Source: a virus. Taken from it: a stretch of 64,000 nucleotides of DNA. The stretch's first letter is position 1, and the number at the start of each line of letters is the position of its first letter. The stretch is from the UHGV virus genome UHGV-0134778, one strand, 5' to 3'. The notes beneath the pieces are model-generated. The model was not told where the DNA came from. It saw only the letters and a list, made by a program, of their open reading frames with translations, and ran no database searches. A program made the translations under genes and the position numbers. Shown here piece by piece: positions 12,929 to 64,000 of this stretch.

Positions 12929-12930
12929 TA

Positions 12931-13598: not shown

Positions 13599-13637
13599 TA
13601 ATTTATCTTACCAGGGACGGTAAAAGTAGGAGGTAGC

Positions 13638-13871
13638 ATGAAAGTTAAATTTCTTACAGATTTAGGGTACCCTTCCTTGGTTGACTGTGTTGGTAAAATT
13701 GTGGAAGCAAAACGGCTATCTGCAAACGATAATGTTGTCATGGTTAAGGGAAAAGATTTACTAGCTGCAGGTGCAGAGTCTGGCAGGATCTCTCCTGACT
13801 ATACGTATTACCTGTCTTTAAGTAATCTACCAGAACGAGGCGGCAAAGGCCTTGAAGTTGTGGAGGAGTGA
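13638..13871 (+). CDS. hypothetical small acidic protein, 'VEVVEE-tail' paralog family
   Basis: MKVKFL...GKDLLAAGA...GLEVVEE; paralogous to 17196, 17413, 18925, 19287, 19555, 20359. Confidence 0.6.
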   Translation: MKVKFLTDLGYPSLVDCVGKIVEAKRLSANDNVVMVKGKDLLAAGAESGRISPDYTYYLSLSNLPERGGKGLEVVEE

Positions 13872-13876
13872 CAGGT

Positions 13877-14413
13877 ATGCTTCTGATTAACTGGGAAGAC
13901 CTCTATGGGGACAAAGACCCTGTTGCGTTTGTTGATCGTAGGTGGAGGTACACTGAAGAACAACTGGCTGCAAAAAATTTAACTGCAAAACGCAGAAAGA
14001 TCATCCAGTGCAAGTACAAATACGCACAGTTTGCTGCAAAAGTGTCTCCACAAATCGAGAGTTTTGTACTTAAATTGTATGACGAGTACCTCAAATTCAA
14101 ATTGGATTTTGTACAGGTATACCGTGCACAGGTACGTCCAGATACCAACATCTGTAGATGGAAGGTTGTTTGTGATGGTAAAGATTTGCCGCTCAGTTTG
14201 ACAATTGAGTGGCGTTGGGGGTATCATGAGTGCGGTTTGTATGATATTTGGGATGTCATTGTAGATCCTGCTAAGTACCTGAACACAGAGGAGCTGGAAT
14301 ATATCAATAAGGTTATTCTAGATATGTTTTTCAGCTACACCCATGAAAACTCTGAGAAAGAACGGGATAATTTTCTTGACACCCTCGGCAACCACCTGCA
14401 GTGTACAATTTAA
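13877..14413 (+). CDS. hypothetical protein (track ORF 13868..14413)
   Basis: ATG at 13877 with GGAGG upstream. Confidence 0.5.
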   Translation: MLLINWEDLYGDKDPVAFVDRRWRYTEEQLAAKNLTAKRRKIIQCKYKYAQFAAKVSPQIESFVLKLYDEYLKFKLDFVQVYRAQVRPDTNICRWKVVCDGKDLPLSLTIEWRWGYHECGLYDIWDVIVDPAKYLNTEELEYINKVILDMFFSYTHENSEKERDNFLDTLGNHLQCTI

Positions 14414-21939: not shown

Positions 21940-22094
21940 TAGTATAGTGACTAACAAGAGGTGAGGAATGACTGATTTTACTGAAGCTTTAATGATGGCC
22001 TTATCTGTTTTAGCGCTATCGGTGTGTTTTGGGGCGTTATTCACATCTCTGGTTAAAGTTTTACATACCATATTCTCACCCAAGGAGCACAGTA

Positions 22095-22346
22095 ATGACG
22101 AAGATTGACTTAAATGCTGGCGACCATGTTGTTGTCAAATGCATCGGGGATTATCTTGGATTCACAATCGGCAATACTTACGAGGCAGTGGTGGCGAAGG
22201 TTTATCATGATAAAGTCCTTAGCCTTGTATTTGACTGTGATGATGACGGAGATGACCGCTACGTCTGTGAGGTGCTGGCACGTGACGATAGTGAAGACCA
22301 GAAATTCCTGGTTATCGAACTGAACGGTATTTTTGTAGAACGTTAA
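22095..22346 (+). CDS. hypothetical protein (track ORF 22029..22346 trimmed)
   Basis: ATG at 22095 preceded by AAGGAG. Confidence 0.5.
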   Translation: MTKIDLNAGDHVVVKCIGDYLGFTIGNTYEAVVAKVYHDKVLSLVFDCDDDGDDRYVCEVLARDDSEDQKFLVIELNGIFVER

Positions 22347-22374
22347 TTTAAAACAATATAAGGAGACTCTTACT

Positions 22375-22680
22375 ATGGCTAAATCTAAAGTTGAACTGTT
22401 CACCTCTCTGCCTTCTGACACTGCAGAGCGTGATCGCCTCCGTAAAACAATTGAAGAGCTGGTGGAACTTCAGCTTCAGATTAAAGATCTGAAAGACGCT
22501 ATCAAGGATATTATTCTTGTAGAGAAACAGGATCACCTGTATTCTCCTAAGTTTATCAAGTCATTGGTGGCTACCGAATTCGATATCCGCTATGAAGCTG
22601 AAAAACGTCGAGCTAAAATCGAAGAAGAGGTTGAGCACATGTCTGAAGCAGACATTCTGTTCAAACGCTCTGCAGAATAA
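22375..22680 (+). CDS. hypothetical coiled-coil protein (101 aa)
   Basis: AAGGAGA RBS; heptad-like charged sequence. Confidence 0.55.
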   Translation: MAKSKVELFTSLPSDTAERDRLRKTIEELVELQLQIKDLKDAIKDIILVEKQDHLYSPKFIKSLVATEFDIRYEAEKRRAKIEEEVEHMSEADILFKRSAE

Positions 22681-22686
22681 CAACGA

Positions 22687-22711
22687 AGAGGGGTCTTGGC
22701 CCCTCTTTTTT
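22687..22711 (+). terminator. intrinsic terminator
   Basis: GAGGGGTC-TTGG-CCCCTC hairpin followed by TTTTTT. Confidence 0.6.
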
Positions 22712-22734
22712 ACTATCTATGAAGGAGATTAGAG

Positions 22735-23061
22735 ATGCTAATGCCGATTACTGTAAAAGAACTAAATGAACGTGATGCAGGAGGCCTGTGGCCTGCACGG
22801 AAAATACGCTGCGTTTATATGAAAGAGAATCTTGAACACCTTGATCAACAGATTGCGGTTGGCGATATTTTCGAAGTTCTCTATTCTAATCGTCGCAACT
22901 GGGAAACCATTCAACCTTCCGGTTTTGTTCTTGCCAGACTTGATACCGGAGAAGTGATTATCCCTGGGCTGGATATTGTCTTCGAAATTATCCAGGAGTG
23001 GGATCCTGATAAGATTAAATATGAAGAGTTATTCGGTGAAGGTATTATCAGGCCTGTATGA
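22735..23061 (+). CDS. hypothetical protein (108 aa)
   Basis: GAAGGAGA RBS. Confidence 0.5.
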   Translation: MLMPITVKELNERDAGGLWPARKIRCVYMKENLEHLDQQIAVGDIFEVLYSNRRNWETIQPSGFVLARLDTGEVIIPGLDIVFEIIQEWDPDKIKYEELFGEGIIRPV

Positions 23062-23369
23062 GGTGGATTATGTCTACAACGACAGCTAAATACTCCTATA
23101 TGCCAGCAACCTCGGCAGAAATAGACTTCAGTTTTGATGTGTTTCCATTGTTTGAGGTGGTTCTGGCATACCCAACAATACTATCTACTCCTGAATCCCT
23201 TGTACCTGTTAAGTTGCAGAACGCTATGCATTCCATGCATTACAACAATAAATGTAGGCACAGATGGTGTCAAGACGAGGAAAAAGATCTGGAGAGTTTG
23301 AAAGATTTTGACAGTCACCTTTTGACACCTTTTAGTTACTCAAACCTAGACAAGCCTTCATGGGTATAG
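23058..23369 (+). CDS. hypothetical protein (103 aa)
   Basis: ATGA overlap with previous gene. Confidence 0.5.
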   Translation: MRWIMSTTTAKYSYMPATSAEIDFSFDVFPLFEVVLAYPTILSTPESLVPVKLQNAMHSMHYNNKCRHRWCQDEEKDLESLKDFDSHLLTPFSYSNLDKPSWV

Positions 23370-23393
23370 CAAAATATCAAATTTAAGGCACAT

Positions 23394-23420
23394 AGGACGC
23401 TATGTGGCGTCCTTTTCTTT
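23394..23420 (+). terminator. intrinsic terminator
   Basis: AGGACGC-TATGTG-GCGTCCT hairpin followed by TTTCTTT. Confidence 0.55.
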
Positions 23421-23582
23421 ATCTGGTGCACGATTCCATACCTTAAGCAGTTAATCTCATTACAGAGCGTTTAAAGGCGGCTTACAAGCAACTCTCTATT
23501 TCGAGCGTAGCGAGAACGCACGTCCGTTTTGACCCAAATCACCATACGCTCGGATTTTAACCAAACCCTCGCGGCGTTTCTG

Positions 23583-23611
23583 TTGACACATTACCGCTCC
23601 AGTGATAATAT
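23583..23611 (+). promoter_or_regulatory. sigma70-like promoter
   Basis: TTGACA 23583-23588, 17-nt spacer, TAATAT 23606-23611. Confidence 0.5.
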
Positions 23612-23631
23612 CCACACATCATTTGGAGAAT

Positions 23632-23733
23632 ATGGGATACACAATGAAAACATTGTCAGAGGTTTTGGTGGTGATCCTGATGATCATTACGTCCATAGTG
23701 GCTGTTGCCGGAATACTCACGGGTGGAACATGA
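23632..23733 (+). CDS. small hydrophobic peptide (33 aa), below track cutoff
   Basis: GGAG RBS 4 nt upstream; MGYTMKTLSEVLVVILMIITSIVAVAGILTGGT; lies inside doubtful track ORF 23529..23942. Confidence 0.4.
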   Translation: MGYTMKTLSEVLVVILMIITSIVAVAGILTGGT

Positions 23734-24063
23734 TAAACACACATGCATCTGAAGAGACATCCAAAGGAGTGACTATATGTCCCTTGGCTGAGCCAGTGAA
23801 AGAGGAAAACTTAGATTCTGAAGATTCTCCATCTTCGCTCCAGGTAGATCCTGAGGCTGATGACCTAACGTGGGAAGACATCGTAGACATCTGGTTCTCC
23901 ATTATGCCTGAGCACGAAGAGTTCAGAGGTGGCAGACTATGAAGCACCGAGCCCACACAGGTTCCTCATGCTAAAGCATGGCCTGAAGAGGCAAACGTGC
24001 ATAATTCCTGTGCATTGGAACGTATAAAACCCTGTTCACACTCTCATTTCTAGAGGAGATTTC

Positions 24064-24279
24064 ATGAAGATAGAAATATTTGGTGGAGCTGACAACACTT
24101 GTGGCCTGATTTACCTCGAATTCGATGAATCGTACCTGCCAGAAGTGTTAAACATGGATTCTGTTGCTGAGGCTTTGGGAGTAAGTCCTAAAGATCTCTA
24201 CTCTGGTGCTGAGATTGATGGTTGGGAGGAGACCATGAACATCGATTTCAGTGAAGTAGGTGATGAACCGCTGGACTGA
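24064..24279 (+). CDS. hypothetical acidic protein (71 aa), last plus-strand gene of block
   Basis: AGAGGAGA RBS upstream. Confidence 0.5.
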   Translation: MKIEIFGGADNTCGLIYLEFDESYLPEVLNMDSVAEALGVSPKDLYSGAEIDGWEETMNIDFSEVGDEPLD

Positions 24280-25802
24280 CACACAATTAGTTGCCCGGCT
24301 AAAGTGCTGGAAGCACCCATAACATCTTCCAACTAAATTTCCTACCAACACAGTTACTTACCCACCACACATGACTGTTTGCTTGTTTAGTGAGCAGTCA
24401 TCCCTTGACATTCTTGCCTATCTTGATAAAATTAAGTTCTTCTCTTTTCTTTTACCGAGTAATTCGGGTTTTCTGTTCTCTTCGGTTTGAAGGGGTATGG
24501 AGATACACCTGAGTGAACAGGGTGAACAACCGAACCTTTAGCTATGGCATTAGCATGGCGAAGCGGACGGGTGACGAAAGAGGGGCCGGAGGACACCAGT
24601 CACTGCCATATAGTATATGGGTGATAACCTGAAGAGTCTGAATAAGTGTTTAAGTACCAGTCAGAGGAAAAGGTGAATGGTAGCCGAAGGGGGAGGGGGG
24701 TTTCTTATATCTTTAATTTGTATACTTTATATACACTTGTAAACCAATTCAATTAGGATCTGTTTACCACACAAAGTGGATGGAGACAAATATCACCTAT
24801 TAAACTTGAATTATTTATAGAAAATACCACAACACTACTTAAGTCTTTGATTTTACACACAAATCCTACAGATACTCACCCTCCATATTTAACATACTTG
24901 TAACATATCCCATACTCTACCTGTCTGATCAATTTACCCAACTACATCCCCATATTTTTCCTGTCTGTACTACCCCTGCCCCGCCGGGAGTCCCGTCATA
25001 TCTGGCTTCCCAGCAAATATCACACCCACAAATATCATTGCCTGAAGAGGGTTTCATCCCATAATACACACCTTGCCTGAAGAGCGATTCATACACCAAC
25101 TAAATTTTTTAATTGACCCCTCCCCGCCGCCGGAGAGGTTGGCTTTTCCCACACAGGCCTGAAGAGTCAGCCAGAAATATCTGAACAGGCCCAGTTATAC
25201 CACGATTTTGACATGACCGACAGGAGTGCTACCCTGTCAGGAGCCGGTAGCGACTGGAGTGCTGCCAGGCGGACGAAATGGGAATACTTCTCATTCTTAT
25301 AACAATTCTCAAATATCGAGGCAGTGAGGCAAATTAATAGGTGAGGCCGTTCACACAGTGGCACAACATTTGCAACCTATCTTGTGGGGTGAATGAGAAT
25401 ACCTATCATTGTGAGAATAGTTATCATTACGGGCAATTTAACATAATACCCATTATGCGCACCACTGGCGATACATACAGGGATTGATAACATGGGTTAC
25501 TGTTTACGCACATAACAATTATATTTCTTACTATTTGTGCGGGATATAGTTAGCAACCAATAGATTAGATATTGACCTGCGGACTTCTGACCGTCCAGAC
25601 GTCTAAACGCCCACACAACAAGGGTTATACATACATTCCTGAATGTAAACAGGGCCGCAAAAATGCTACCATACCAGTTTGTAAATTTTTCATGCAGCAC
25701 TTGACAAAGAGGAGAAAAACTTGTCTGACACTTTTGCCACTTTTGACACTTTTACCTTTGACACAATATGACACAATAACGGCTGTTACTATTCCATATC
25801 TC

Positions 25803-25858
25803 ACTGTTTACGCATAGACTGTTTACGCCTGAATAGTTTACGCCCAAACTGTTTACAC
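25803..25858 (+). repeat. four tandem iteron-like repeats ACTGTTTACGC
   Basis: ACTGTTTACGC at 25803 and 25818, AGTTTACGC at 25835, ACTGTTTACAC at 25848; further copies near 25508 and 26322. Confidence 0.7.
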
Positions 25859-25869
25859 AGAGATGATGA

Positions 25870-26163
25870 GCCATGCCATTCGTTTGCATGAAAACAATTA
25901 ACAAGATAACAATTAACAAGTTAATAATCTTTCGCTGGCTATGCCAGGTGACTAGGTCACCCCTTCGGGCGTTTATATGACATAATATAAAAGCAGGGCA
26001 ACTATTAGAAGATCTATAGTTGCCTTGCTTGTTATGTCATGATTAACTAAATACAAGGCAACTATGATCTGAGTAATAGATTGCAGAAAAACTATCACGG
26101 GGGTGATGGTTACTGCTTTTATATTATGTCGCGACTCCGTCGCGCCATGCCATTCGTTTGCAT
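25870..26163. repeat. composite element: 20-bp direct repeats flanking 18-bp inverted repeats and GGCAACTAT hairpins
   Basis: DR GCCATGCCATTCGTTTGCAT at 25870 and 26144; IR GACATAATATAAAAGCAG (25979-25996) vs CTGCTTTTATATTATGTC (26113-26130); GGCAACTAT/ATAGTTGCC four times; palindromes GGTGACTAGGTCACC and GCGACTCCGTCGC. Confidence 0.7.
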
Positions 26164-54156: not shown

Positions 54157-54498
54157 CTACTCAAGGTCTTCAGAGTCAAGCTCAAAAAGAATCAAACTGT
54201 GCATGCCTGCAGAGAGATTAACACACCCTGCAACAATAAGGGTTTGATAGTAAGGTTCAGCACCCTCAATATCTTCGTTAAAATCCACAACAAGGTAGTC
54301 ACCTTTGTTAAAGGTGTATTTGTCCGATGTAAACGCAAAACCTGCCCAGTCCCCTACTGCAGGATCTTTATCAGTCACCTTTGTTAGCAGTAGATCTTTT
54401 TCACGAGATCTTTTAGTAAAATCGTGAATCACAACATCCTTCTCTTCAGAAGTCGGATTGCCACACACGTAGTTAACGATATTTCTCCACAAACTCAT
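54157..54498 (-). CDS. hypothetical protein (113 aa)
   Basis: Co-oriented ORF. Confidence 0.5.
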   Translation of the reverse strand: MSLWRNIVNYVCGNPTSEEKDVVIHDFTKRSREKDLLLTKVTDKDPAVGDWAGFAFTSDKYTFNKGDYLVVDFNEDIEGAEPYYQTLIVAGCVNLSAGMHSLILFELDSEDLE

Positions 54499-55865
54499 AC
54501 GTCCCCCTTTTCTGCTCTAGTTTCAAAATCTTTCCTGACTTTCTCGTCTAAGCCAGGGAAAGTTGTATTATAAAACTCTACGACTCTCGGGTCAACAATA
54601 ATATCCACCTCTCTTAATGGACGCAACAAGTTTATTCCTTGTATCGTCTTAACCCGACTCAAGGCAACATACGTCATTCCGGGAGAGAAAGCTCCGTTCT
54701 TTCCGAGGTCTAGGTTGTAACAATCTAACGTAAGTCCTTGACTTTTATGCGATGTTACTGCGTACCCAGATTTCAAAGGAAGTTGCTCATAAGACCCGAT
54801 CACAACCCTCTCTATGAACTTCTCCATCTTCCTTTCGGCAATATTGTACCTCTGGGAAGGTTTGTACTCGTTATTCTCCCACAATCTTGGCTCAATTTCA
54901 ACCTGTGTTCCGTCTTCTAGCTCAACTACTACGGATTTGGTCTTGAATTTTACCACTGTGGCACGTGTCCCGTTAACATAATACGGAACTTTGTGAGTAG
55001 GGTCAACATCGTTTGAGGTTATCATAACCTTCATCCCTATCTTCAGCCTCATTTCCTGCTCCACAGGTAGTGTGGAAGGGAACTTACCTTTCATTTTACC
55101 AATGTAGGTCTTCTCTGGGGCCTTGATGGCATCATAGAAACGTCTGTTCACCTCCTCTGCTTGCTTATTGGTGGCACAGATGGTCAAGGCATCTGTTGGG
55201 ACACCACCATGATAGCAACGAGTGTTAAGCTCTGCTACAACCTCTTTTATGCGACGACCTTCACGAACACAGTTCAACATTGTGGCGAAGCGAACAGATT
55301 CCTGACGGAACTGGTCTACTAAGGCTATGTTGTGAAGATTAAGATCCTCCCAAGATTCTGTATAGCAACACAGGTCTGTGTGGTAGAAGTTGAAGTAGGC
55401 TTCTTTCTCCATAGAAGAGACAACTGGAGGTGCTTGGTAGAAATCTCCAAACAATAACACCTGAATGCCTCCGAAAGGTTTGTCATTTTTCCGAAGAAAG
55501 CGGAGTTTTCTATCCATCTCTATGAACTTGTCAGCACGGATCATAGAGATTTCATCGATAATCAGGATGGTAAATGCCTTGCTTTTCAGAGGCTTTGCTG
55601 TTTTTGCCCTTATTGCTGTCCAGTCTGACTCCATGCTCACACCTGCGGCAAGATCGAAAGTTCGGTGCGCTGTTGCTCCATTAACGTTTAAAGCGGCTAC
55701 CCCTGTCGGGGCAACCGTTATGCAAGAGTCTCCATACATGGACTGGATCATGTTGATAAGATATGTCTTCCCGGTTCCACCAGGTCCACTTACGAAGACA
55801 TTCTCACCGCTCATGATTGCAACAAGGGCAGCATCTGTGCCTACATCGTACTGCCCTTTTTCCAT
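54495..55865 (-). CDS. SF1B DNA helicase, Dda/RecD/Pif1-like (456 aa)
   Basis: Walker A VSGPGGTGKT, motif Ia TVAPTGVAA, C-terminal YVALSRVKT. Confidence 0.75.
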   Translation of the reverse strand: MEKGQYDVGTDAALVAIMSGENVFVSGPGGTGKTYLINMIQSMYGDSCITVAPTGVAALNVNGATAHRTFDLAAGVSMESDWTAIRAKTAKPLKSKAFTILIIDEISMIRADKFIEMDRKLRFLRKNDKPFGGIQVLLFGDFYQAPPVVSSMEKEAYFNFYHTDLCCYTESWEDLNLHNIALVDQFRQESVRFATMLNCVREGRRIKEVVAELNTRCYHGGVPTDALTICATNKQAEEVNRRFYDAIKAPEKTYIGKMKGKFPSTLPVEQEMRLKIGMKVMITSNDVDPTHKVPYYVNGTRATVVKFKTKSVVVELEDGTQVEIEPRLWENNEYKPSQRYNIAERKMEKFIERVVIGSYEQLPLKSGYAVTSHKSQGLTLDCYNLDLGKNGAFSPGMTYVALSRVKTIQGINLLRPLREVDIIVDPRVVEFYNTTFPGLDEKVRKDFETRAEKGDV

Positions 55866-57106
55866 TACGCCTCCTCGTAGATAATGTCGATAGTATTACC
55901 GTCGCGGTCAACCACGTACTCAATTGGGTCGCCATCTTTGCGCGATTCTGGAGCTACTACGATTTCGTAGCGGCATGCACGGCACTTGGCGCTGTTGTGT
56001 TGGTAAGGTACACTAACTACATCGGCAGGGTCAACCATAACCGTCATCACAGTTCCGTAGCTCTTTGCATACTCTTTGCTGGCACAGTGCAGGCCATAAG
56101 AGCATGCAGCTTCCGGATCATCCTCTACAAAGTTACGAGGCATGGATACAAAAGCCCCCTGGTATTGTGGGACTTTACCACTGTGCCAATCCACCCACTT
56201 GTCGCCGTTAAACTGAACCCCTTTGTAGCAAATGATTCGACCATCTTCTGCAATCTGAATGTCGTTTGCCTGCATAAAATCGTAGAGCATGTTTACAGAT
56301 TTTGCAGAAGGATTGCGTAGCAGGCGAACGAGGAATTTCACATAGCGGTCATCCAGTGTTCCGTCTGCATAATCTTTCTCAATTTTCTTTGCAATGGTGG
56401 ATCGCATCTCTACACCGTAGTAGTAGAGCTTACCATCTTTCATGATCAGGTTGTCTGCAAGTGTGGTGAACTCATTCTTGCGTTCCAGCCAGACAAGGAT
56501 TTCACCAATTGCCTCGTCATATTCCTGAACAGAGATATGGTCGAAGACTTTCTGGTAAACTTCCTCACTTTCACTGCGGCGAATTTCAAAAATACCTTCG
56601 TTGCAGGTGATCTGGAGGAGTTCCCCGCAAATAACCACCAAAGGCTCGATGCTTCGGGTCTGTTGCTGAGACACACTGCTCACCACCTCCAGCACCGGGT
56701 CTTTTACTTCTACTAAAGGTTCTTCTGACTTGATTGCTACCCCAGTGAACCCTACACCGTGAACAACACACAGTGGATATACCACACCCCAACGTTTAAC
56801 GGAACCTTCTCCTAAATCTAAGATCATGGCGTACTTACCGTTATCTTCCAGCCCATATCGAAATAAACGGGCCTCTTCACGGGTTTCAAAATCCTCACGG
56901 GTGTAGCAGACGCTGTCACGGTCAGGATCGAACAACTCTGGGGCACCTACTGCCAGTGTCCAGGTTGTGTTACCTTTCTCAATAGCGCATGTGAAACCCT
57001 TCTTCTCAAGCTCTGCACGGCGGTCACGTGCTTCTTTACGAGTTTTGAAATGTTCGTAGATGAAAATCATCTTGGTCTCCTTATTTGATGTTATTCTTTG
57101 TATCAA
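55865..57106 (-). CDS. rIIB: rIIB-like protein (413 aa)
   Basis: C-terminal half recalled as matching T4 rIIB: LYDFMQANDIQIAEDG, CSYGLHCASKEY, VDPADVVSVP...AKCRACRYEIVV; adjacent to rIIA. Confidence 0.7.
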   Translation of the reverse strand: MIQRITSNKETKMIFIYEHFKTRKEARDRRAELEKKGFTCAIEKGNTTWTLAVGAPELFDPDRDSVCYTREDFETREEARLFRYGLEDNGKYAMILDLGEGSVKRWGVVYPLCVVHGVGFTGVAIKSEEPLVEVKDPVLEVVSSVSQQQTRSIEPLVVICGELLQITCNEGIFEIRRSESEEVYQKVFDHISVQEYDEAIGEILVWLERKNEFTTLADNLIMKDGKLYYYGVEMRSTIAKKIEKDYADGTLDDRYVKFLVRLLRNPSAKSVNMLYDFMQANDIQIAEDGRIICYKGVQFNGDKWVDWHSGKVPQYQGAFVSMPRNFVEDDPEAACSYGLHCASKEYAKSYGTVMTVMVDPADVVSVPYQHNSAKCRACRYEIVVAPESRKDGDPIEYVVDRDGNTIDIIYEEA

Positions 57107-59063
57107 TCAGTTCACGGTATTCAATCATAGCAGGAGTGTCCCAATATTTCAAGCCTACATGCTTCAAAAGTGGATATTTCTTTTCCAATCTTGCAATATA
57201 GGCCTTCCCGCACTTAACCCGGTTGGCGATTAAGATTTTGGCACGATGATTTAGCTCACCGTACTTCCACGTGGTGCTACCTTCCCACTTGTGGAAATGT
57301 GGCCGATAACTTCCAAAATCCTGCATGGGGATAATTTTACCTAACTGTCTGTACAGGCTGTCATATGAAGTTTCATTTGCTGCGCGAGTTAGTAAGAATT
57401 TCCAAGCATCCTCTTTCAACAAATGTTCCACATTCTTCTCTGTAACATATTGGCAATCAGGATCAGTCCAAAGCAGACGAGATTCCGACACCAGGTACAG
57501 ATCTTCCCCTTCAGGAATCTGGAGTGCCGCACGCACACGGTCATAATCTTGCTGGTAGATGTTGCTCATCTGCCCTAGCCAACAACTTCCGCGTTGGATA
57601 TCCCCCTCATACGGTATGCAGTGCTTAATCTTCCTGAACTCTGCCTTAGTAATACGCTCACGCCGGAAGTAACCATCCTTCTCAAGTTTTTTAACCCAAT
57701 AGCCTGGTTCGTAACGGGTTTTGGTTTCACCTTTCTTCGTAGGTCGGCGTGGAAGCTCCGATAACAATTTGACCGTATCTGCAAAAAACGGATGGTGTGC
57801 CGCCTCTTTAAACTCTTTCACCAGATCCGTGTTACGGCAATAGAAAACGTTGCGTCCGGTAATCTCGCTTAAGTAGTTACACTTATTCCGGTTATATTTG
57901 CCGTCTCCGTCGTTAAATACTAAATAAACTCCCCGTAAGAATTCTACCTTTCCGTAGCAGGCGTAACCTATGCGGCCTTTATTTAAGCCGCCAGCGAAGA
58001 TCTCGCAGTCCCCCAAATTTCCTAGCCCTGTTTCTTCCCAGCGGTCATACATAAAATTCTTACCGAAGATGTGCCCGAACACTCCACTGTTCTTCATCAT
58101 CTCGCGTGCTTCTGAGGATGTTTTTGCTGTCTCCAGTTCTGCAACAACTTCTGCTCCACGAAGGCGAATGCCTTCTTTGACAAAAGCTTCCAAACGCTCT
58201 TGGAATCCACCATCGTCGTGACCTTCTATGGTCCATTCACGCCCTGGGTTAATATTGCAATCTCCGATAGGGATCTCTACACAAATTGCAGGATAATCTA
58301 TTAGTGTCTCCAGGAACTTAGAACGGTAAGGTTGGTGACCCATTACCACACGACTCTCGTCAGAGCTGGTATAACCCTTCAGGATGGTCATCTTCCAACC
58401 ATCTTTTTCATAATAATACTGCGCCTCTACTTTGTCTCCCTCCAGCATCTTGCTCGTCATCGGGTCGGTGACAGTGAACGGAAATTTTGCATAGCGCAGG
58501 CATGATGCAATAGCGGTGCGATATTTCAGAACATGCTCTTTCTTAACATGAAACTGAACTTTTACCCCGTTGTGCTCTTCAGTCTTCCGCTCACGGATCT
58601 TGGTGACATTTGGGATACCCTGGTCCAAGAACAATAGGTATGTGCTTTCCACACCGTTGTGCACACTGATTACATCGAAAGTGTCCACCATGCTGAACGG
58701 GGCCTTTGAACCAACACCTTTATTGCCTACCAGAGCGTTGCTGTTGCGCTTGGTCGACTCACCGAGGTTCATGAAAGTGTTACGGACCATCTCTTCTGAC
58801 ATGCCTAATCCAACGTCCTGCACAAAGAAGTATGGTTCAAGGTCTGTAGGAGAGTGAATGATGATCGGTACATCACCTCGTCCAGACTCAACATGTGAGT
58901 CCACAGCATTGAAGATCGGTTCACGGCAGCTTGCCAGTACCTTATCTTCATAAATCCCTTTGATGATTAGCCCAAAAGTCTCTTTGTTCAGAGAAATTGA
59001 TCCCCTGGTTACCTCCATATTCCCAGTTAGCACCGCTTTAGTTTCATTGCTGTTTACAATCAT
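57081..59063 (-). CDS. rIIA: rIIA-like protein with N-terminal GHKL ATPase fold (660 aa)
   Basis: Bergerat-fold motifs EPIFNAVDSH and FVQDVGLGMS; sits directly upstream of rIIB. Confidence 0.7.
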   Translation of the reverse strand: MIVNSNETKAVLTGNMEVTRGSISLNKETFGLIIKGIYEDKVLASCREPIFNAVDSHVESGRGDVPIIIHSPTDLEPYFFVQDVGLGMSEEMVRNTFMNLGESTKRNSNALVGNKGVGSKAPFSMVDTFDVISVHNGVESTYLLFLDQGIPNVTKIRERKTEEHNGVKVQFHVKKEHVLKYRTAIASCLRYAKFPFTVTDPMTSKMLEGDKVEAQYYYEKDGWKMTILKGYTSSDESRVVMGHQPYRSKFLETLIDYPAICVEIPIGDCNINPGREWTIEGHDDGGFQERLEAFVKEGIRLRGAEVVAELETAKTSSEAREMMKNSGVFGHIFGKNFMYDRWEETGLGNLGDCEIFAGGLNKGRIGYACYGKVEFLRGVYLVFNDGDGKYNRNKCNYLSEITGRNVFYCRNTDLVKEFKEAAHHPFFADTVKLLSELPRRPTKKGETKTRYEPGYWVKKLEKDGYFRRERITKAEFRKIKHCIPYEGDIQRGSCWLGQMSNIYQQDYDRVRAALQIPEGEDLYLVSESRLLWTDPDCQYVTEKNVEHLLKEDAWKFLLTRAANETSYDSLYRQLGKIIPMQDFGSYRPHFHKWEGSTTWKYGELNHRAKILIANRVKCGKAYIARLEKKYPLLKHVGLKYWDTPAMIEYRELIDTKNNIK

Positions 59064-59560
59064 TTATTGCGCTCCTTGTAGTAGATATGGCTCCCGAATT
59101 GAGCTGTCCTCTGCATCTTTTTTGCCCATTTCGGTCGTACTTTTGTTGTATGGTAGTGTGTTGCTCCGCCTGTTATATCCATAGCCATGTATGCAACATG
59201 GTTGTTATTATAGACCTTTAGAAGCATCTTTGCAAGACTTTTAGCGTGATCCCATGAATCTTTTTCTGTCACCTTAAAAGTTTTGCCGTGGTTTGTCCAC
59301 GAAAACTGGTTAGGTTGGTAGACAATCTTTCTTATAGTGTCTGGGTATTTGGGGTGAGATTTCCTGTTTAGTGTGGCAAATCCGGATGCCAGCATACCCA
59401 TCGTGCCATCCCCTCTAGCCTCCCTGTAGATATTGCATGCTAGAATGTTTTCCTTAGTATCCGACGGCTTGCAAGTGTGATATACTTTTTGTTTTGGTGC
59501 TGCAACAACAGGCAGCGATAAAAATGCGCTCAAAATAATAGCAAAGATTTTAATTTTCAC
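59060..59560 (-). CDS. secreted cell-wall hydrolase, SleB/CwlJ-like (166 aa)
   Basis: Signal peptide MKIKIFAIILSAFLSLPVVAA; motifs NIYREARGDG, ATLNR, NQFSW. Confidence 0.5.
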   Translation of the reverse strand: MKIKIFAIILSAFLSLPVVAAPKQKVYHTCKPSDTKENILACNIYREARGDGTMGMLASGFATLNRKSHPKYPDTIRKIVYQPNQFSWTNHGKTFKVTEKDSWDHAKSLAKMLLKVYNNNHVAYMAMDITGGATHYHTTKVRPKWAKKMQRTAQFGSHIYYKERNK

Positions 59561-59609
59561 AATAGCTCCAAATAGAAAATCCCCGCCGAAGCGGGGTGTG
59601 TCTTAGAAA

Positions 59610-59990
59610 TTAATCGTAGTGTGCCAAAATCTCTCCATCGTTGCAAGTCCCCTCTACGAAGTTGTGAAGATTCATGCATTCATCTTGATAGAAGAATTTA
59701 CCGCTTTTCAGCCGTAGACCAAACAACTCCGCATCTCCACGATGGCAAGCCTCTACAAGTTCATAGATTTCATACGGTAATTCCCCATCGTCATGGAAGA
59801 ACCCCGCTTTATCGTTGACATAGATGAAGAAATAGTCACTGCTGTCGCAAGCGTCCAGTATTTTAAACCAGATTTCATCCACATCTTTTTCTCGGATATC
59901 GATCACACAAGCGGAGCTGCATTCGTACTCCTTCTCCGGCTCCTCGGTCAATACCACCAAGTAGTTTCCCCGCTTACCTACTTTAGCCAT
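59610..59990 (-). CDS. hypothetical acidic protein (126 aa)
   Basis: Co-oriented ORF. Confidence 0.55.
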   Translation of the reverse strand: MAKVGKRGNYLVVLTEEPEKEYECSSACVIDIREKDVDEIWFKILDACDSSDYFFIYVNDKAGFFHDDGELPYEIYELVEACHRGDAELFGLRLKSGKFFYQDECMNLHNFVEGTCNDGEILAHYD

Positions 59991-59999
59991 ACAACCTCC

Positions 60000-61184
60000 T
60001 CAAGCTTTAGCTAAAATGGCGCTAAACTCTTCACCAAACTCTTTTACAATCTTCATCAGGTTTGGGTATGCTTTGATCAGCTGAGCAACGATCTTGTCCC
60101 TGCCTTTACCAATAAGTAAGGCATTTCCTAAGGCGTTAGGTTTCATCATCGCCATAAAGACTGAGAATACAAAGTCTCGGTTCTCATCCTTGAAATTTTC
60201 CCAAAGGAAATCAAGGAAGTTTGCCACACAGCTGACGAGATCTTCGTCGGAGATACTTGCATTTTCCATCATATTACGAATAGCGATACAACCTTCAGAC
60301 CCCAGAATCCACAAGATGTCTGGCTGCTTAGGACCTACATATTCTTTGCAGCCTCCTGCCATAATCCGACCGATTTCTGGCAAGTTTCGTTTCTTGGTGT
60401 GGTAGGTCCAAATTTCTACCGCTGCAGTGTGACCAATTGCACCTTGTAGAAGGACACGGGCCATAGCGTCAGAAATAATACCGCTGTCAAAATCGTGCAG
60501 GATGTCAGATGCAGCAACCCAAGATCGCGGTGTAGCAAAAGATGGACAATTAATCTCAGCCATGGCCTCATAATTATCGATGGCTGATGGGACTCTTTTC
60601 AGATATCCAATTACCGAGGAGTGCACCCCATTAAGGAATGCATAGTCCTCAATAAACACCTCTGCACTGCTTGTAACTTCTACAATGATAAAGCGGTTAG
60701 CTAGAGGAGCTTCGAGCGCCGAAAGAACAGCACCGTCTGTAGCACGGTTACCTGCAGCTACAAAAACAGAGCCCTTAGGAAATGCATAGGTGCCGCACTT
60801 GTGGTCGAGCATAATTTGCATTGCAACCTTCTGCAGGTAGTTATCTGCATGAGTAAGCTCATCTAGAAAGATAATTCCGCTCCAGTCCGGATCTGCAGGC
60901 CAAAATTCTGGAATTGCAAACACTGTGCGTGTAGTCCCATCCGACTCTACAGGGATAGGTAGCCCAGATAAGTCAGCAGGATCTTTATCTGACAACCGCA
61001 CGTCAACCAGGTTGTCATCTCGCTCGCCGAACATATTATCAGCAATCTGCTTCATCACCTGGCTCTTCCCCACGCCCATCGGTCCTAAAATCAGGACAGA
61101 TCGGTTATGACGCTGGGCAAATTGAATAATAGCTGGCAACTCGCGGACAGTGATTTGACCACTTTCGAATACGTTTCTTGACAT
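60000..61184 (-). CDS. AAA+ ATPase, MoxR/AAA_5-like (394 aa)
   Basis: Walker A ILGPMGVGKS, Walker B IIFLDEL. Confidence 0.6.
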   Translation of the reverse strand: MSRNVFESGQITVRELPAIIQFAQRHNRSVLILGPMGVGKSQVMKQIADNMFGERDDNLVDVRLSDKDPADLSGLPIPVESDGTTRTVFAIPEFWPADPDWSGIIFLDELTHADNYLQKVAMQIMLDHKCGTYAFPKGSVFVAAGNRATDGAVLSALEAPLANRFIIVEVTSSAEVFIEDYAFLNGVHSSVIGYLKRVPSAIDNYEAMAEINCPSFATPRSWVAASDILHDFDSGIISDAMARVLLQGAIGHTAAVEIWTYHTKKRNLPEIGRIMAGGCKEYVGPKQPDILWILGSEGCIAIRNMMENASISDEDLVSCVANFLDFLWENFKDENRDFVFSVFMAMMKPNALGNALLIGKGRDKIVAQLIKAYPNLMKIVKEFGEEFSAILAKA

Positions 61185-61453
61185 TAGTAAAAGTCCTCTA
61201 CTTGTGTGTAAGTGTTTTCAAAGTTTTCCAAAACAGACATCACATCGGATCTGTCAATATCATACGCAACTCTCCAGCCATATGCAACCCTTTCTGCTGT
61301 TGCCTCTTCTGGCGCTAGTCGTCTGCTGGCATAAAAGAGTGTTGGAGTACACTTTCTTGCTTGCCCTCTAACTTTCCCATAATAATATCTGTGAATATCT
61401 TTGTCAAAATTTAATTCTTTTTCTGCACGAAGTTCGTACTGCTGGTATAACAT
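61184..61453 (-). CDS. hypothetical protein (89 aa)
   Basis: Overlapping stop/start. Confidence 0.5.
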   Translation of the reverse strand: MLYQQYELRAEKELNFDKDIHRYYYGKVRGQARKCTPTLFYASRRLAPEEATAERVAYGWRVAYDIDRSDVMSVLENFENTYTQVEDFY

Positions 61454-61497
61454 CTCTACTGCTCCTTAAGCAGCATCCTTGCCGCCATCCCTACCCA

Positions 61498-61878
61498 CTA
61501 AAATGCAGTCCGAATCCAGACAAGGTTCTTATCTGCCCAATCATAGAGGCAAGTCATTGCACTATTGAATTGCTCACACGGAGGATAATCTTCTTCCATC
61601 TTGCGCATAGCAGAGCCTTGTGGGTAAAGCTCCCGTGCTGCAAACCACGCGTCGTAGTCATCAACGGTATCGAAGTAGTATACAACATCCTCCAACTCAG
61701 GATCGAACTTTGAACTATCAGGATCCAGCTGTTCAGGGAACTTGGAGCGTAACTTGCCAGCCACAATACTTGCCAACTCGCTAACATGTTTGTTGTCCCA
61801 CTCTACCAGTTTCCCGTCTTCAGTTATGCGTCCTAACCACTGATCATGAAGGTCAACTGTTGTCTTCCACTGGGCCAT
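61498..61878 (-). CDS. hypothetical protein (126 aa)
   Basis: Co-oriented ORF. Confidence 0.55.
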   Translation of the reverse strand: MAQWKTTVDLHDQWLGRITEDGKLVEWDNKHVSELASIVAGKLRSKFPEQLDPDSSKFDPELEDVVYYFDTVDDYDAWFAARELYPQGSAMRKMEEDYPPCEQFNSAMTCLYDWADKNLVWIRTAF

Positions 61879-61880
61879 TA

Positions 61881-62138
61881 TCAGTCTACCTCTTCTTCTC
61901 GTTGCAGTTCAAGATACCCATAGGTCTGGATATCTTCAAAGGTGTGGAACTCTCCATCTGCCGCTAAGGCACGGACAACCTGGCATAGAGTTTTATAAGG
62001 TACTTTCTCCAAACCCATATTCAGCGCAGGAAAAACCTTATCTAAGTCAACAAAATATACAAACTGTAGCTCACCAGTTTCAAAAGGCGTATCTTCGATA
62101 AACATCTTCTCGGCATTAGTTAAGATTTGCACTTTCAT
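61881..62138 (-). CDS. hypothetical acidic protein (85 aa)
   Basis: Co-oriented ORF. Confidence 0.5.
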   Translation of the reverse strand: MKVQILTNAEKMFIEDTPFETGELQFVYFVDLDKVFPALNMGLEKVPYKTLCQVVRALAADGEFHTFEDIQTYGYLELQREEEVD

Positions 62139-62494
62139 TATTCTGCCTCCTCTTCTTTTTCTTCAGCATTAGTTTCAGTACCACCCCACTCTGGAGTTTC
62201 CACCTCGACAGTAAACTCACGCACTACACGGTAATTGCCCATGAAGCGCTCCACTTCTTCAAGGCTTATGGAGAGGCCATTGGCAACCAAGTCTGCAGCA
62301 CCCTTCTCTACCAGGTAGTCCAGATTGGCTTCCAAGGCTTCAGGCTCAAACCCTGTCAATGCAATCATATAACCTTCCCCTTCATCAGGGAGGGCAATAC
62401 AGCCCAACTGATTTTCTTTAAAAAAGCAGTGACCATCACTATTGATTGGTTGCTCATTGCAGTAAATAGCTGCACGATAAGTAACTTTAGACAT
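62138..62494 (-). CDS. hypothetical acidic protein (118 aa)
   Basis: Overlapping stop/start. Confidence 0.5.
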   Translation of the reverse strand: MSKVTYRAAIYCNEQPINSDGHCFFKENQLGCIALPDEGEGYMIALTGFEPEALEANLDYLVEKGAADLVANGLSISLEEVERFMGNYRVVREFTVEVETPEWGGTETNAEEKEEEAE

Positions 62495-62506
62495 TGATAG
62501 GCCTCC

Positions 62507-62785
62507 TTAGGCAACTGTCATTTTACATTCTTGAAATTTTAGCACAAGACGGTGATTGTGTCTAGTGTCTAAAAAGATTTTTTCAACCATCAGGCACACG
62601 GTATAACCGTCTGTCTTGTTGACAACAAAATCCCCAGGGTGAGGGAGAATGTCCCCAGGATTGGGGAAACATAACCCGCTCAAGAAGGCATCATCGGTGG
62701 TGGACTTAATGGATTTCCACACACTATCTGCCTGAACATTCTCACCAACATAATATACACTACCACATGACTTCATCATAGTCAA
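62507..62785 (-). CDS. hypothetical protein (92 aa)
   Basis: Co-oriented ORF. Confidence 0.5.
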   Translation of the reverse strand: MTMMKSCGSVYYVGENVQADSVWKSIKSTTDDAFLSGLCFPNPGDILPHPGDFVVNKTDGYTVCLMVEKIFLDTRHNHRLVLKFQECKMTVA

Positions 62786-63681
62786 ATCTCCGCGTAAATT
62801 AAACTGGAATCAGTATACTTCTTTAGTGGGTAAATATCCTGTCCATAGATGCCGTCATTAAACACCTCATCTACCCAAAGGCTACACTTATATCCCATCA
62901 TCTCTAAAACACCCATCTCTTCTTCGGTAAACTTATCACCGCTCTTGCAAGATGTCAACACCTCATTCTGTACTCTTGCTACCTCGAAGCGATTATTGGC
63001 AATATCGCTATTGGCGATCAAATACTCACCTAAAGGGTGTGCGGCATTAAAGATGCACAGTGGGCGGTTGACGTAATAGTCTCCCGGTGTATAAAAATTG
63101 TTGAGATCCTTCACCAGAACATTCTTATCAGTCACTTCATTTATAACATCATGCATATCACACATCTTTATATGTTTGAGGATTCCATCCCCCATCACAA
63201 AATAAAAACTTGCTGAGACACTCTCGGCATAGATCTTACTAGATCCGTTGTAGTTGTATTTTACGCGAATGCTTACAGGGGTTTTGCCTGTCGCGTTAGC
63301 CATCATCCAAAGGAACGGAAGTTCAAACTTCTCCTCTGAGGAAACAAAAGGTGAAGTTGCCAGAGATCGGAAACCACCAGAGAAGTTGAAAGTTACAGAG
63401 CCGCTCCGGCGATATGATACCGCATATTCTACTTTTATATCGACATAGCCGTTGGAGTAAGTGTGGCCTCCATTATCCAGATATGTCCATTTATCAGATC
63501 CGGATACCAGCCTACGCTCAATAACCTTCATTACTATAGGAATTAGCGGGTTGGTACAAACCGATTTTGAAGTAGCTTTATCATCCAAAGCCTCGTAAAT
63601 TGCAGAAAGGATATCACCTGCTGAGAGATTGGTTGTGATATCTTGTTTCCACCTGGTGCTAAAACTGTTAAGATTTGCCAT
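62782..63681 (-). CDS. hypothetical protein (299 aa), first gene of minus-strand block
   Basis: Long ORF; divergent from plus-strand promoter at 63764. Confidence 0.6.
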   Translation of the reverse strand: MANLNSFSTRWKQDITTNLSAGDILSAIYEALDDKATSKSVCTNPLIPIVMKVIERRLVSGSDKWTYLDNGGHTYSNGYVDIKVEYAVSYRRSGSVTFNFSGGFRSLATSPFVSSEEKFELPFLWMMANATGKTPVSIRVKYNYNGSSKIYAESVSASFYFVMGDGILKHIKMCDMHDVINEVTDKNVLVKDLNNFYTPGDYYVNRPLCIFNAAHPLGEYLIANSDIANNRFEVARVQNEVLTSCKSGDKFTEEEMGVLEMMGYKCSLWVDEVFNDGIYGQDIYPLKKYTDSSLIYAEI

Positions 63682-63763
63682 GCGTAAGTGCTCCTATGTT
63701 AGTTTTCTTTTGAATGGGTGCACTATATCGTGGATTTAGAGTAAAGTCAACACGTTTTTCAGG

Positions 63764-63792
63764 TTGACATCTTCTCAGGCACTTGGTAAGAT
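63764..63792 (+). promoter_or_regulatory. sigma70-like promoter
   Basis: TTGACA 63764-63769, 17-nt spacer, TAAGAT 63787-63792. Confidence 0.5.
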
Positions 63793-63823: not shown

Positions 63824-64000
63824 ATGAATCTTGAAAAATATTATACACCAGAAGAGTTAGAGCGCTTGCTCAAAAAATACAGACGCAAACAGAATAACGC
63901 ACGGAAACGGGATATAGAGTTCAACCTGTCATGGGAAGAATATCTCCTATTTGGTAAAAAACTTTTAGGAGAGGGAGTATGCGACTATACCCTTATACCT
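63824..64000 (+). CDS. freestanding HNH-family endonuclease, 5' fragment (runs off window)
   Basis: N-terminal pattern RKRDIEFNLSWEEYLLFGKKLLGEGVCDY resembles phage HNH endonuclease N-termini; catalytic motif not in window. Confidence 0.4.
   Translation, partial: MNLEKYYTPEELERLLKKYRRKQNNARKRDIEFNLSWEEYLLFGKKLLGEGVCDYTLIP

Follow-up and report, generated by a model that had tools for sequence, protein, structure and literature searches.

The locus analysed here raises the question of whether a phage-encoded MoxR-like AAA+ ATPase stands on its own or is one half of a conventional pair with a VWA-domain protein. The window, that is, the whole stretch of 64,000 nucleotides under analysis, is 99.7% identical to ECP26 and 97% identical to FV3, and belongs to the Vequintavirus lineage (rV5/FV3/ECP26-like E. 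coli phages). The phage carrying the ATPase gene is a 137-kb non-jumbo myophage. Translation of the ATG-to-stop ORF at 60000–61184 on the minus strand yields a MoxR-class AAA+ ATPase, and deposited genes with 99–100% identity to this ORF are already labelled "MoxR ATPase" in public records. We propose that the product of the ORF is probably the AAA+ motor in a system of two proteins homologous to gp24/gp25 of phage N4. Within this explanation, the identity of the ATPase and its pairing with a VWA partner are held with high confidence. The features of the window that bear on the question are listed in Table 1.

Table 1. Coordinates, strands and bases of assignment of the features discussed in the text.
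Feature	Position	Strand	Details and basis
Terminator-like GC-rich hairpin with T-rich tail (CCCCGCTTCGGCGGGG ATTTTCTATT)	59581..59596	-	Consensus match only
126-aa acidic ORF downstream of the ATPase gene, pI 4.4	59610..59990	-	phrog_12370; lineage-specific, outside the conserved pair
MoxR-class AAA+ ATPase, N4 gp24 homolog, phrog_1297	60000..61184	-	394 aa
Sensor-2 arginine R220 (ATPRSW), start of lid helix	60525..60527	-	Alignment and model
Sensor-1 N146 (AAGNR) through R164 (LANRF, candidate arginine finger)	60693..60749	-	Alignment and model
Walker B codons I104-I-F-L-D108-E109-L110	60855..60875	-	Translation and alignment
Walker A/P-loop codons G34-P-M-G-V-G-K40-S41	61062..61085	-	Translation and alignment
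89-aa ORF upstream of the ATPase gene	61184..61453	-	Lineage-specific, outside the conserved pair
Sigma-70-like promoter TTGACT-17-TATAGT, 10/12	63722..63750	-	Consensus match; same site in ECP26
Sigma-70-like promoter TTGACA-17-TAAGAT with TG, 10/12	63764..63792	+	Consensus match; also in ECP26
5' end of 329-aa ORF, cut by the window end, phrog_3118	63824..64000	+	Start identical to the ECP26 ORF

The preliminary description of this DNA, made from the letters and translations, had pointed to an ORF with the motifs ILGPMGVGKS and IIFLDEL, and this ORF proved to be real: the protein matches phrog_1297 'ATPase' with E=2.4e-110, and the two motifs, at residues 32–41 and 104–110, are preserved in an alignment of 32 sequences that extends down to 30% identity. 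Invariant positions in this alignment comprise G37, G39, K40 and S41 of Walker A, L107, D108 and E109 of Walker B, the residues A144, G145, N146, R147, N163 and R164, and P219 and R220. Because the catalytic motifs are invariant down to 30% identity, the P-loop of the ATPase is far beyond chance. R164 is a candidate for the arginine finger, assigned by its position alone. In the protein, the N-terminal alpha/beta AAA+ domain covers approximately residues 1–170, and the remainder (approximately residues 174–394) comprises the helical lid and an additional helical region at the C-terminus. The core of the predicted structure contains five beta strands (residues 29–33, 59–63, 104–108, 140–145 and 165–170) that are succeeded by helices, with R220 carried on helix 219–233. 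A beta-hairpin (residues 77–88) is placed in the model between strand 59–63 and the Walker B strand, with pLDDT values below 50 for residues 66–80 and 84–88, and short strands precede the sensor-1 strand at approximately residues 129–134; these are the parts of the model in which the insertions of AAA+ clade 7, a helix-2 insert and a beta-hairpin before sensor-1, were sought. The classical attributes of AAA+ proteins, namely Walker A and B, sensor-1, sensor-2 and a core-then-lid order, are thus all present.

The assignment to the MoxR/AAA_5 class was approached through profiles, folds and genomic association. A direct search with AAA_5 and MoxR models, which had been suggested as a check, fell short of the Pfam cut-offs: the ATPase scores 16.9 bits against AAA_5 (PF07728; cut-off 22) and 15.7 bits against bpMoxR (PF20030; cut-off 27), both below the gathering threshold, with no match to AAA_3 (PF07726) and, among the NCBIfam models, nothing approaching any cut-off. 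The part of the check that stood comes from relatives at 33–36% identity (E ~1e-44 to the query), which carry precomputed Pfam AAA_3/AAA_5 matches, and the Pfam link of the ATPase is therefore transitive rather than direct. In a structure search, the closest solved folds are NorQ and CbbQ2, ranks 1 to 12 of the Foldseek results are all occupied by MoxR proteins, and the best matches of the ATPase profile in the PDB are the AAA_5 modules of midasin (E 3e-10). The association with a VWA/MIDAS partner that marks the MoxR class is also found for the ATPase in the locus census described below. The designation as a single-module ATPase nearest to the MoxR/AAA_5 group (NorQ, CbbQ, midasin) consequently holds, as had been anticipated. 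Another AAA+ clade, for example that of the clamp loaders, had been named as the finding that would overturn it; clamp-loader and RFC models give no significant match to the ATPase (RFC, 14.7 versus 317 bits). Single-sequence phmmer searches of the PDB returned ClpB/ClpC matches restricted to the P-loop (residues ~13–66, E 1e-4 or weaker), which are uninformative for the clade. PADLOC yielded marginal P-loop matches only for the ATPase, and membership in a known defence system is not supported by it.

No VWA domain is recognisable in the two ORFs adjoining the ATPase gene (59610–59990 and 61184–61453), in agreement with the preliminary description. Taking as a yardstick the ~130–180 aligned residues that a VWA domain spans in the fold comparison of the partner, their products of 126 and 89 aa are too small; the DxSxS motif is absent from both translations, neither ORF has a Pfam, NCBIfam or PADLOC match, and neither has homologs in loci outside Vequintavirus in the related-locus census. 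Both were rejected as VWA candidates on size, motif, family match and co-conservation. The PHROG label 'ATPase' attached to the 89-aa ORF was rejected as well, the P-loop being absent. The acidic character ascribed to the small proteins of the neighbourhood is borne out, with pI values of 4.2–5.4 in five of the six ORFs of up to 126 aa in 59610–62785 and of 6.2 in the sixth.

A VWA protein is found on the far side of the window boundary. The tail of the window is identical to ECP26 in 317 of 319 nt, and in ECP26 and FV3 the gene directly after the 329-aa ORF encodes a protein of 486–497 aa with DUF2201_N and DUF2201 domains. Its window-equivalent position is ~64847–66307, i.e. 850–2300 nt past the window end, and in ECP26, FV3 and the IMG/VR contig L012 it is located 3.6 kb upstream of the ATPase gene on the opposite strand. 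From these genomes, 97–99.7% identical, we infer that the window's own genome carries the partner. The FV3 protein (L001:7734-9227) matches PF13203 (5e-28) and PF09967 (6.5e-11), both above gathering scores, and the ECP26/FV3 partner matches phrog_1314 (1.8e-122). The partner is composed of an N-terminal HExxH zinc-peptidase domain (DUF2201_N), classed in Pfam as a putative metallopeptidase, and a C-terminal VWA/MIDAS domain (DUF2201) that resembles BchD and NorD in fold comparison. HExxH and DxSGS occur together in 64 of 64 partners, and in eight verified partners H108, E109, H112, H117, D351, S353, S355, T414 and D438 are invariant. A PADLOC search with the partner gave no match. The public labels "HNH endonuclease" and "anti-sigma factor" given to partner proteins are misleading, and checks that rely on annotation miss the pairing because of them.

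The census of related loci shows how general the pairing is. It covered 91 loci, 81 of them with sufficient flanking DNA, and a partner is present in all 81; each of the ten loci without one ends no more than 1.1 kb downstream of the ATPase gene. The partner directly follows the ATPase gene in 75 of the 81 (74 with a gap of 14–272 nt, and L065 with overlapping frames), and lies 1.4 kb downstream of it in L007. In the Vequintavirinae-like loci (L001, L008, L011, L012 and L013) this co-directional downstream arrangement is not encountered, and the partner is located 3.6–4.3 kb upstream on the opposite strand. Adjacency is therefore the usual arrangement in the family but no defining trait. The apparent orphan status of the ATPase is a consequence of the window boundary combined with the lineage-specific relocation of the partner gene, and the claim that it lacks a VWA partner is not sustained. 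The preliminary description had itself allowed that a VWA fold in a neighbour would make this a conventional pair, and such a fold was found, in a gene that is not an immediate neighbour. The pairwise divergences of the ATPase and the partner correlate with r=0.97, a value that could stem from shared vertical descent alone and is no proof of coupling. Overall, the pair is present in roughly 700–800 sequenced phage genomes, including essentially all 119 Vequintavirus records, and in phages of very different hosts; tblastn searches located both proteins in jumbo phages, among them RaK2, 121Q, Bacillus phage G and Pseudomonas phages of phiKZ size.

In Vequintavirus, a 142-bp intergenic region separates the divergent ATPase and partner operons and carries sigma-70-like promoters placed back to back. 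The minus-strand promoter may head the gene run that holds the ATPase, judging from its consensus match and position, whereas the plus-strand promoter faces the operon that bears the partner in ECP26 and FV3. The TAA stop of the 89-aa ORF shares one base with the ATPase ATG (TAATG), and an AGAGGA Shine-Dalgarno-like sequence is positioned 11 nt upstream of this ATG; the two genes appear to be co-transcribed and translationally coupled. The hairpin just past the 126-aa gene is the probable 3' end of the ATPase transcription unit, a reading taken from the sequence. Neighbouring genes include rIIA/rIIB and one for a Dda-like helicase, along with numerous small acidic ORFs that are specific to the lineage and of a kind typical of early regions. 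More generally, early/middle genes (rIIA/rIIB and those for helicase, thymidylate synthase, dCTP deaminase and FEN) surround the pair in Vequintavirus, in N4-like phages and in the 360-aa clade.

A working model for the pair follows the analogous NorQ-NorD, CbbQ-CbbO and RavA-ViaA systems. The ATPase would form a hexameric ring, with the VWA domain of the adaptor docking on or in its pore, and the MIDAS metal site of the adaptor would capture an acidic residue of the target protein. ATP hydrolysis would then pull on adaptor and target, and the fused zinc-peptidase domain may cleave the remodelled target. We regard the ring/VWA/MIDAS mechanism, as transferred from these systems, as reasonably likely. 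In Vequintavirinae, the adaptor gene would have been relocated from directly downstream of the ATPase gene to the opposite strand, 3.6 kb upstream. The likeliest target would be a phage protein processed or matured in early-to-middle infection, with virion morphogenesis as the foremost, and still tentative, candidate process for the pair. [quoted passage not shown] The location of the pair among early/middle genes, outside the structural modules, weakens the morphogenesis reading. A search of the open-access literature retrieved no functional study of the pair, and no interaction, ATPase or protease activity shown for the family.

The same early/middle setting would also suit a host-directed ATP-dependent protease that remodels and cleaves a host defence or housekeeping protein for take-over or counter-defence. 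Both operons start at sigma-70-like promoters, which suggests early transcription by the host RNA polymerase, the genes lie beside rIIA/rIIB, the helicase and small acidic ORFs typical of early regions, and the N4 pair is transcribed in the middle phase, not late (PMC4193335). In addition, MoxR-vWA modules belong to bacterial conflict systems (PMC7159879). Counter-defence genes are usually sporadic and host-specific, however, whereas this pair is core (it supplies two of the 14 genes in the N4-like core, occurs in essentially all 119 Vequintavirus records and is conserved in phages with very different hosts), and PADLOC returned no noteworthy match. We therefore consider host targeting unlikely. 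A more specific version, in which a MoxR motor, MIDAS capture and a zincin constitute a trans-acting AAA+ protease for host proteins and the split operons allow motor and adaptor to be regulated independently, is slightly less likely again. If host targeting were true, the pair would represent a new class of viral take-over or counter-defence protease, common to many lytic phage lineages.

A second alternative assigns the pair to metal-cofactor insertion or activation, as for NorQD, CbbQO, CoxD and the Mg/Co chelatases, with HExxH serving as a metal-handling module. In line with such a role, NorQ, which acts in Fe insertion, and CbbQ, a Rubisco activase, are the nearest relatives of the ATPase with solved structures, the partner has a VWA domain like those of BchD and NorD, and genes for thymidylate synthase or dCTP deaminase recur in the vicinity of the pair (N4, N4-like phages, RaK2 and the 360-aa clade). 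On the other hand, HExxH with an invariant glutamate is a catalytic zincin signature and the domain is a putative metallopeptidase in Pfam, no nucleotide-metabolism gene adjoins either pair gene in Vequintavirus, and no candidate client enzyme is co-conserved. The metal-chaperone role is accordingly improbable, to a greater degree than host targeting.

The proposal that an orphan MoxR-like ATPase and its flanking small acidic proteins constitute a new chaperone-like or anti-defence module without a VWA protein is hardly tenable: it is true that the flanking genes encode small acidic proteins without assigned function and that translation of the ATPase appears to be coupled to that of the 89-aa ORF, but the VWA/MIDAS partner is 3.6 kb away in near-identical genomes and present in every informative locus, and the co-conservation census confines the 126-aa and 89-aa neighbours to Vequintavirus. 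Equally hard to sustain is a merely superficial MoxR likeness of a clamp loader, a Clp/Hsp100-like unfoldase or a McrB-like GTPase, given that Clp/RFC matches span the P-loop only (~13–70) and are far under family cut-offs, that the Foldseek ranking and the midasin AAA_5 profile matches point to MoxR, and that a VWA/MIDAS protein, the kind of partner that distinguishes MoxR, midasin and chelatase systems, is its obligate companion in the genome.

The ATPase and its partner are thus a conventional MoxR-VWA pair, already described and functionally uncharacterised. An ATPase paired with a VWA protein was already documented when the N4 genome was annotated, and the combination of MoxR with a metallopeptidase-vWA protein was made explicit by Iyer et al. 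(2021). The value of the present finding is mainly corrective, as it explains the orphan appearance of the ATPase and exposes the misleading labels of the partner. The pair is core in N4-like phages, and E. coli Vequintaviruses and N4 offer tractable systems for the study of its role.

Among known systems, the closest is the N4 pair, which comprises gp24 (AAA ATPase) and gp25 (vWFA protein), both among the core genes of N4-like phages (Schitoviridae; PMC4193335), and which has no assigned function in PMC2784036 and PMC4193335. The ATPase aligns to gp24 over 280 columns with an hhalign probability of 99.9% (E 7.8e-35), and the ECP26/FV3 partner to gp25 with a probability of 100% (E 2.7e-38). 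Like the partner, gp25 carries DUF2201_N (3e-87) and DUF2201, and the gene order in N4 is similar, with the ATPase gene and, further on, rIIA, rIIB and a helicase. The identity is only ~25–28%, and gp24 and gp25 are adjacent and co-directional, in contrast to the distant, opposite-strand partner of Vequintavirinae (3.6–4.3 kb upstream). The Vequintavirus ATPase is also longer at its C-terminus (394 versus 352 aa). The partner exceeds gp25 in length (486 versus 380 aa) and has insertions in its peptidase domain.

An identical architecture, with a MoxR ATPase and a vWA protein bearing an N-terminal metallopeptidase domain, was described for group 2.2 jumbo phages as a chaperone-cochaperone pair (Iyer et al. 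2021, Viruses 13:63; PMC7824862), whereas the pair analysed here resides in a non-jumbo phage. Its role in virion assembly with proteolytic processing is a prediction of that study. The examples ASV44729.1 and ASV44728.2 are likened to the present pair by architecture.

NorQ-NorD and CbbQ-CbbO share with the phage pair an organisation in which the AAA+ protein has a single module and the VWA adaptor is a protein of its own, and the C-terminal VWA fold of the partner, with a full MIDAS motif, is NorD-like. In the NorQ-NorD system a 'finger' of the NorD VWA domain enters the NorQ pore, and target binding takes place at the MIDAS site (PMC13036017; PMC9976466). Sequence identity to NorQ/CbbQ is 15–19%, and these proteins (250–270 aa) are without the extra C-terminal helical region of ~130 residues found in the phage ATPase. 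An HExxH peptidase domain is lacking in NorD and CbbO, which have metabolic enzymes (cNOR, Rubisco) as clients.

The only virus-encoded MoxR-VWA pair with biochemical data is that of ATV, in which p618 (MoxR) and p892 (VWA) interact and the ATPase is stimulated (PMC4124505). The resemblance to the phage pair is one of shared class. ATV is an archaeal virus, p618 is a virion component of 618 aa and p892 has no peptidase domain. Midasin (Rea1/Mdn1) differs in its organisation: this eukaryotic protein of 4,700–4,900 aa, which acts in ribosome biogenesis, unites six AAA modules and, in cis, a MIDAS domain in one chain.

The ATPase carries a complete set of catalytic motifs and a MoxR-like fold. 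The Walker A sequence ILGPMGVGKS (residues 32–41) and the Walker B sequence IIFLDEL (residues 104–110) are present as first described, and their catalytic residues (G37, G39, K40 and S41; D108 and E109) are invariant in an alignment with 31 homologs, the lowest at 30% identity. The same holds for AAGNR with N146 (sensor-1), LANRF with R164, a candidate arginine finger, and ATPRSW with R220 (sensor-2). Because these motifs are invariant across homologs, the ATPase is genuine and not a chance P-loop. Its ATG shares one base with the stop codon TAA of the 89-aa ORF before it (TAATG), and the sequence AGAGGA is found 11 nt upstream of the start codon. The protein matches phrog_1297, labelled "ATPase", with an E-value of 2.4e-110. 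Its scores lie below the Pfam gathering values for AAA_5 (16.9 against 22) and bpMoxR (15.7 against 27), and NCBIfam and single-sequence PDB searches gave matches confined to the P-loop. Homologs with 33–36% identity (E about 1e-44) contain AAA_3 and AAA_5, and the best solved relatives of the family profile are the AAA_5 modules of midasin (E 3e-10). These homolog domains and profile matches support the proposed placement of the ATPase in the MoxR/AAA_5 group, although its own scores stay below the Pfam thresholds.

Over 59000–62500, the window shares 99.7% identity with Escherichia phage vB_EcoM-ECP26 (ECP26) and 97% with phage FV3. Matches to this segment come from 119 records of rV5-like myophages (Vequintavirinae), and in many of them the gene already has the label "MoxR ATPase". 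Downstream of the ATPase, the minus strand encodes, in order, a 126-aa ORF, a SleB-type cell-wall hydrolase, rIIA, rIIB and a Dda/Pif1-like helicase. The order ATPase, rIIA, rIIB, SF1 helicase (54495–61184, minus strand) parallels that of podophage N4 (fetched locus L094, 1939–14277), in which gp24 and gp25 are followed by rIIA (gp33), rIIB (gp34) and a helicase (gp37). This likeness suggests that the two phages share an ancient early/middle module and that the gp25 homolog moved out of it in Vequintavirinae. The helicase (54495–55865, minus strand) is a single intact ORF of 456 aa in the window and is split in ECP26 (fetched locus L011, 2498–3866) into two CDSs, 'helicase' and 'RecD-like helicase'; the difference suggests that one of the sequences has a frameshift or a sequencing error. 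The GC skew flips from positive to negative at ~22–24 kb (window ~22000–26000) and stays negative to the window end; the minus-strand gene run at 54–64 kb falls within this negative part.

Inspection of relatives from four clades revealed that, in three of them, a protein of 414–522 aa with the Pfam domains DUF2201_N (putative metallopeptidase) and DUF2201 (VWA-like) is encoded directly after the ATPase. This partner lies 1.4 kb downstream of the ATPase in a 42%-identical relative; in a 54%-identical Vequintavirinae-like genome it is found on the other strand, 4.3 kb upstream. The ORFs of at least 80 aa in 91 fetched loci and the window were searched with HMMs built from the ATPase and from eight verified partners. 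The partner is present in 81 of the 91 loci, directly downstream on the same strand in 74 (gap 14–272 nt) and with overlapping ATPase and partner reading frames in one more (L065). All 10 partnerless loci stop at most 1067 nt past the ATPase. The window is the sole sequence with downstream room yet no partner, and no other ORF in it resembles the partner. In the near-identical genomes the partner starts 3.6 kb upstream of the ATPase, whereas the window has just 2783 nt on that side. The ECP26 gene would occupy about 64847–66307 in window coordinates, past the end at 64000; the window still covers the intergenic region between the divergent operons and takes in 177 nt at the 5' end of a 329-aa ORF that precedes the partner gene, and this tail is identical to ECP26 at 317 of 319 nt. 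The preliminary description had seen no VWA partner; this apparent absence is due to the window edge and to a displacement of the partner gene that is specific to Vequintavirinae. Unlike the partner, the small flanking ORFs of 126 aa and 89 aa have no homolog beyond Vequintavirus loci. Pairwise divergences of ATPase and partner correlate with r=0.97, which is consistent with a co-inherited pair and is not proof of coupling.

The partner is an adaptor that co-occurs obligately with the ATPase; its zincin site looks catalytic, and its MIDAS/VWA domain is complete. All 64 non-redundant partners (64/64) contain HExxH and DxSGS, and the zincin-type site (H108, E109, H112, H117) and the full MIDAS motif (D351, S353, S355, T414, D438) are invariant among eight diverse partners. 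With an intact VWA/MIDAS protein as its partner, the ATPase therefore belongs to a conventional pair, the outcome that the preliminary description had named as refuting its own reading, with the one difference that the two genes do not lie next to each other. Public names for the partner are 'HNH endonuclease', 'anti-sigma factor', 'DNA repair ATPase' and 'hypothetical', with 'putative metallopeptidase' in some only. The partner family phrog_1314 is labelled 'HNH endonuclease', and its members carry the DUF2201_N zincin and DUF2201 VWA/MIDAS domains; phrog_13164, the family of the 89-aa ORF (61184–61453), is labelled 'ATPase' and has neither P-loop nor Pfam match. Both PHROGs labels look wrong. 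In FV3 and ECP26 the 299-aa ORF (62782–63681, minus strand) bears the label 'putative alpha 1-3 fucosyltransferase', which looks unsupported. Its FV3 ortholog has no Pfam match, the window ORF belongs to phrog_12338 (function label unknown), and no homolog was found among non-Vequintavirus loci.

Coordinates of the ATPase, of partner genes and of candidate expression signals
Feature	Sequence	Coordinates	Strand	Basis or remark
ATPase ORF, 394 aa	window	61184 to 60000	minus	translation
Sigma-70-like promoter	window	63750-63722	minus	consensus match in 142-bp divergent region
Sigma-70-like promoter	window	63764-63792	plus	consensus match in 142-bp divergent region, back-to-back with 63750-63722
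Terminator-like hairpin	window	59596-59581	minus	after the 126-aa gene
Partner, 497-aa ORF	FV3	7734-9227	plus	DUF2201_N 5e-28, DUF2201 6.5e-11
Partner, annotated "anti-sigma factor"	ECP26 (L011)	12848-14308		same gene as in FV3

The pair is probably expressed early to middle, given the back-to-back sigma-70-like promoters and the middle class of the pair in N4. The top sigma-70-like match of the region (61379–61407, minus strand; TTGACA-17-TATTAT, 11/12) sits inside the 89-aa ORF, ~195 nt upstream of the ATPase start, and could be an internal promoter driving the ATPase apart from the upstream small genes. The 329-aa ORF, cut by the window end (63824–64000, plus strand), belongs to phrog_3118, 'HNH endonuclease', with weaker matches to families labelled endonuclease VII, decoy of host sigma70 and Srd anti-sigma factor. 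It lies directly before the partner gene, which it abuts or overlaps in FV3, and may thus be co-expressed with it.

By analogy with NorQ–NorD, the phage ATPase would form a hexamer on which the VWA domain of the adaptor docks. MIDAS mutants of NorD keep NorQ binding and lose client activation, and the MIDAS site was therefore assigned to target binding (PMC9976466). The corresponding site of the phage adaptor would bind a client protein through one of the client's acidic residues. Remodelling of both proteins by ATP hydrolysis would follow, and the client would then be cleaved by the peptidase domain fused to the adaptor. A phage protein in morphogenesis is the favoured, if somewhat doubtful, candidate client. 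In its favour are the core-gene status of the pair and the viral precedent of ATV, an archaeal virus, as well as RaK2, where the genes around the pair are annotated as virion structural proteins, and roseophage RPP1, with virion-protein genes near the gp24/25 homologs. Our reserve stems from the location of the pair in most lineages, among replication, nucleotide-metabolism and rII genes and not in structural modules. In the Staphylococcus jumbo phage vB_SauM-UFV_DC4, an 'AAA family ATPase' gene adjoins a 'Metallopeptidase' gene, and a MoxR-like ATPase is reported in purified virion preparations, for which the authors ask confirmation (PMC10638138). If homologous to the phage pair, these proteins would hint at virion association.

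A metal-insertion chaperone is suggested by the closest solved relatives of the ATPase and by the recurrence of thymidylate synthase and dCTP deaminase as neighbours, but the invariant glutamate of HExxH points to catalysis. A host-directed protease for take-over or counter-defence is compatible with early to middle expression, whereas the conservation of the pair as core genes in phages of very different hosts speaks against this reading. The census and the fold results contradict two further readings, a different AAA+ clade and an orphan module.

In tblastn, 675 phage records matched the partner and 813 matched the ATPase; the lineages include Vequintavirinae, N4-like podophages of many hosts, RaK2/121Q-type and phiKZ-size jumbo phages, Bacillus phage G and Atu_ph07 (ATPase match). 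Record notes pointed to gp24 and gp25 of coliphage N4. The former matches the ATPase profile (probability 99.9%, E 8e-35) and the latter the partner profile (probability 100%, E 3e-38) as well as DUF2201_N (3e-87). Zhao et al. (2009) listed gp24 as a putative AAA ATPase and gp25 in the vWFA superfamily, with functions unknown (PMC2784036), and Chan et al. (2014) included the two genes in the 14-gene core of N4-like phages and noted that N4 transcribes them in the middle class (PMC4193335). The literature searched yielded no experimental work on the pair. The gene at 60000–61184, annotated in earlier records, belongs to a known phage gene pair that is widely conserved and whose function is proposed by analogy. 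The same architecture, a MoxR protein and a vWA protein with an N-terminal metallopeptidase, is described in jumbo phages by Iyer et al. (2021; PMC7824862), who proposed that such pairs act in virion assembly, with proteolytic processing, and cited the precedent of ATV p618/p892 (PMC7824862; PMC4124505).
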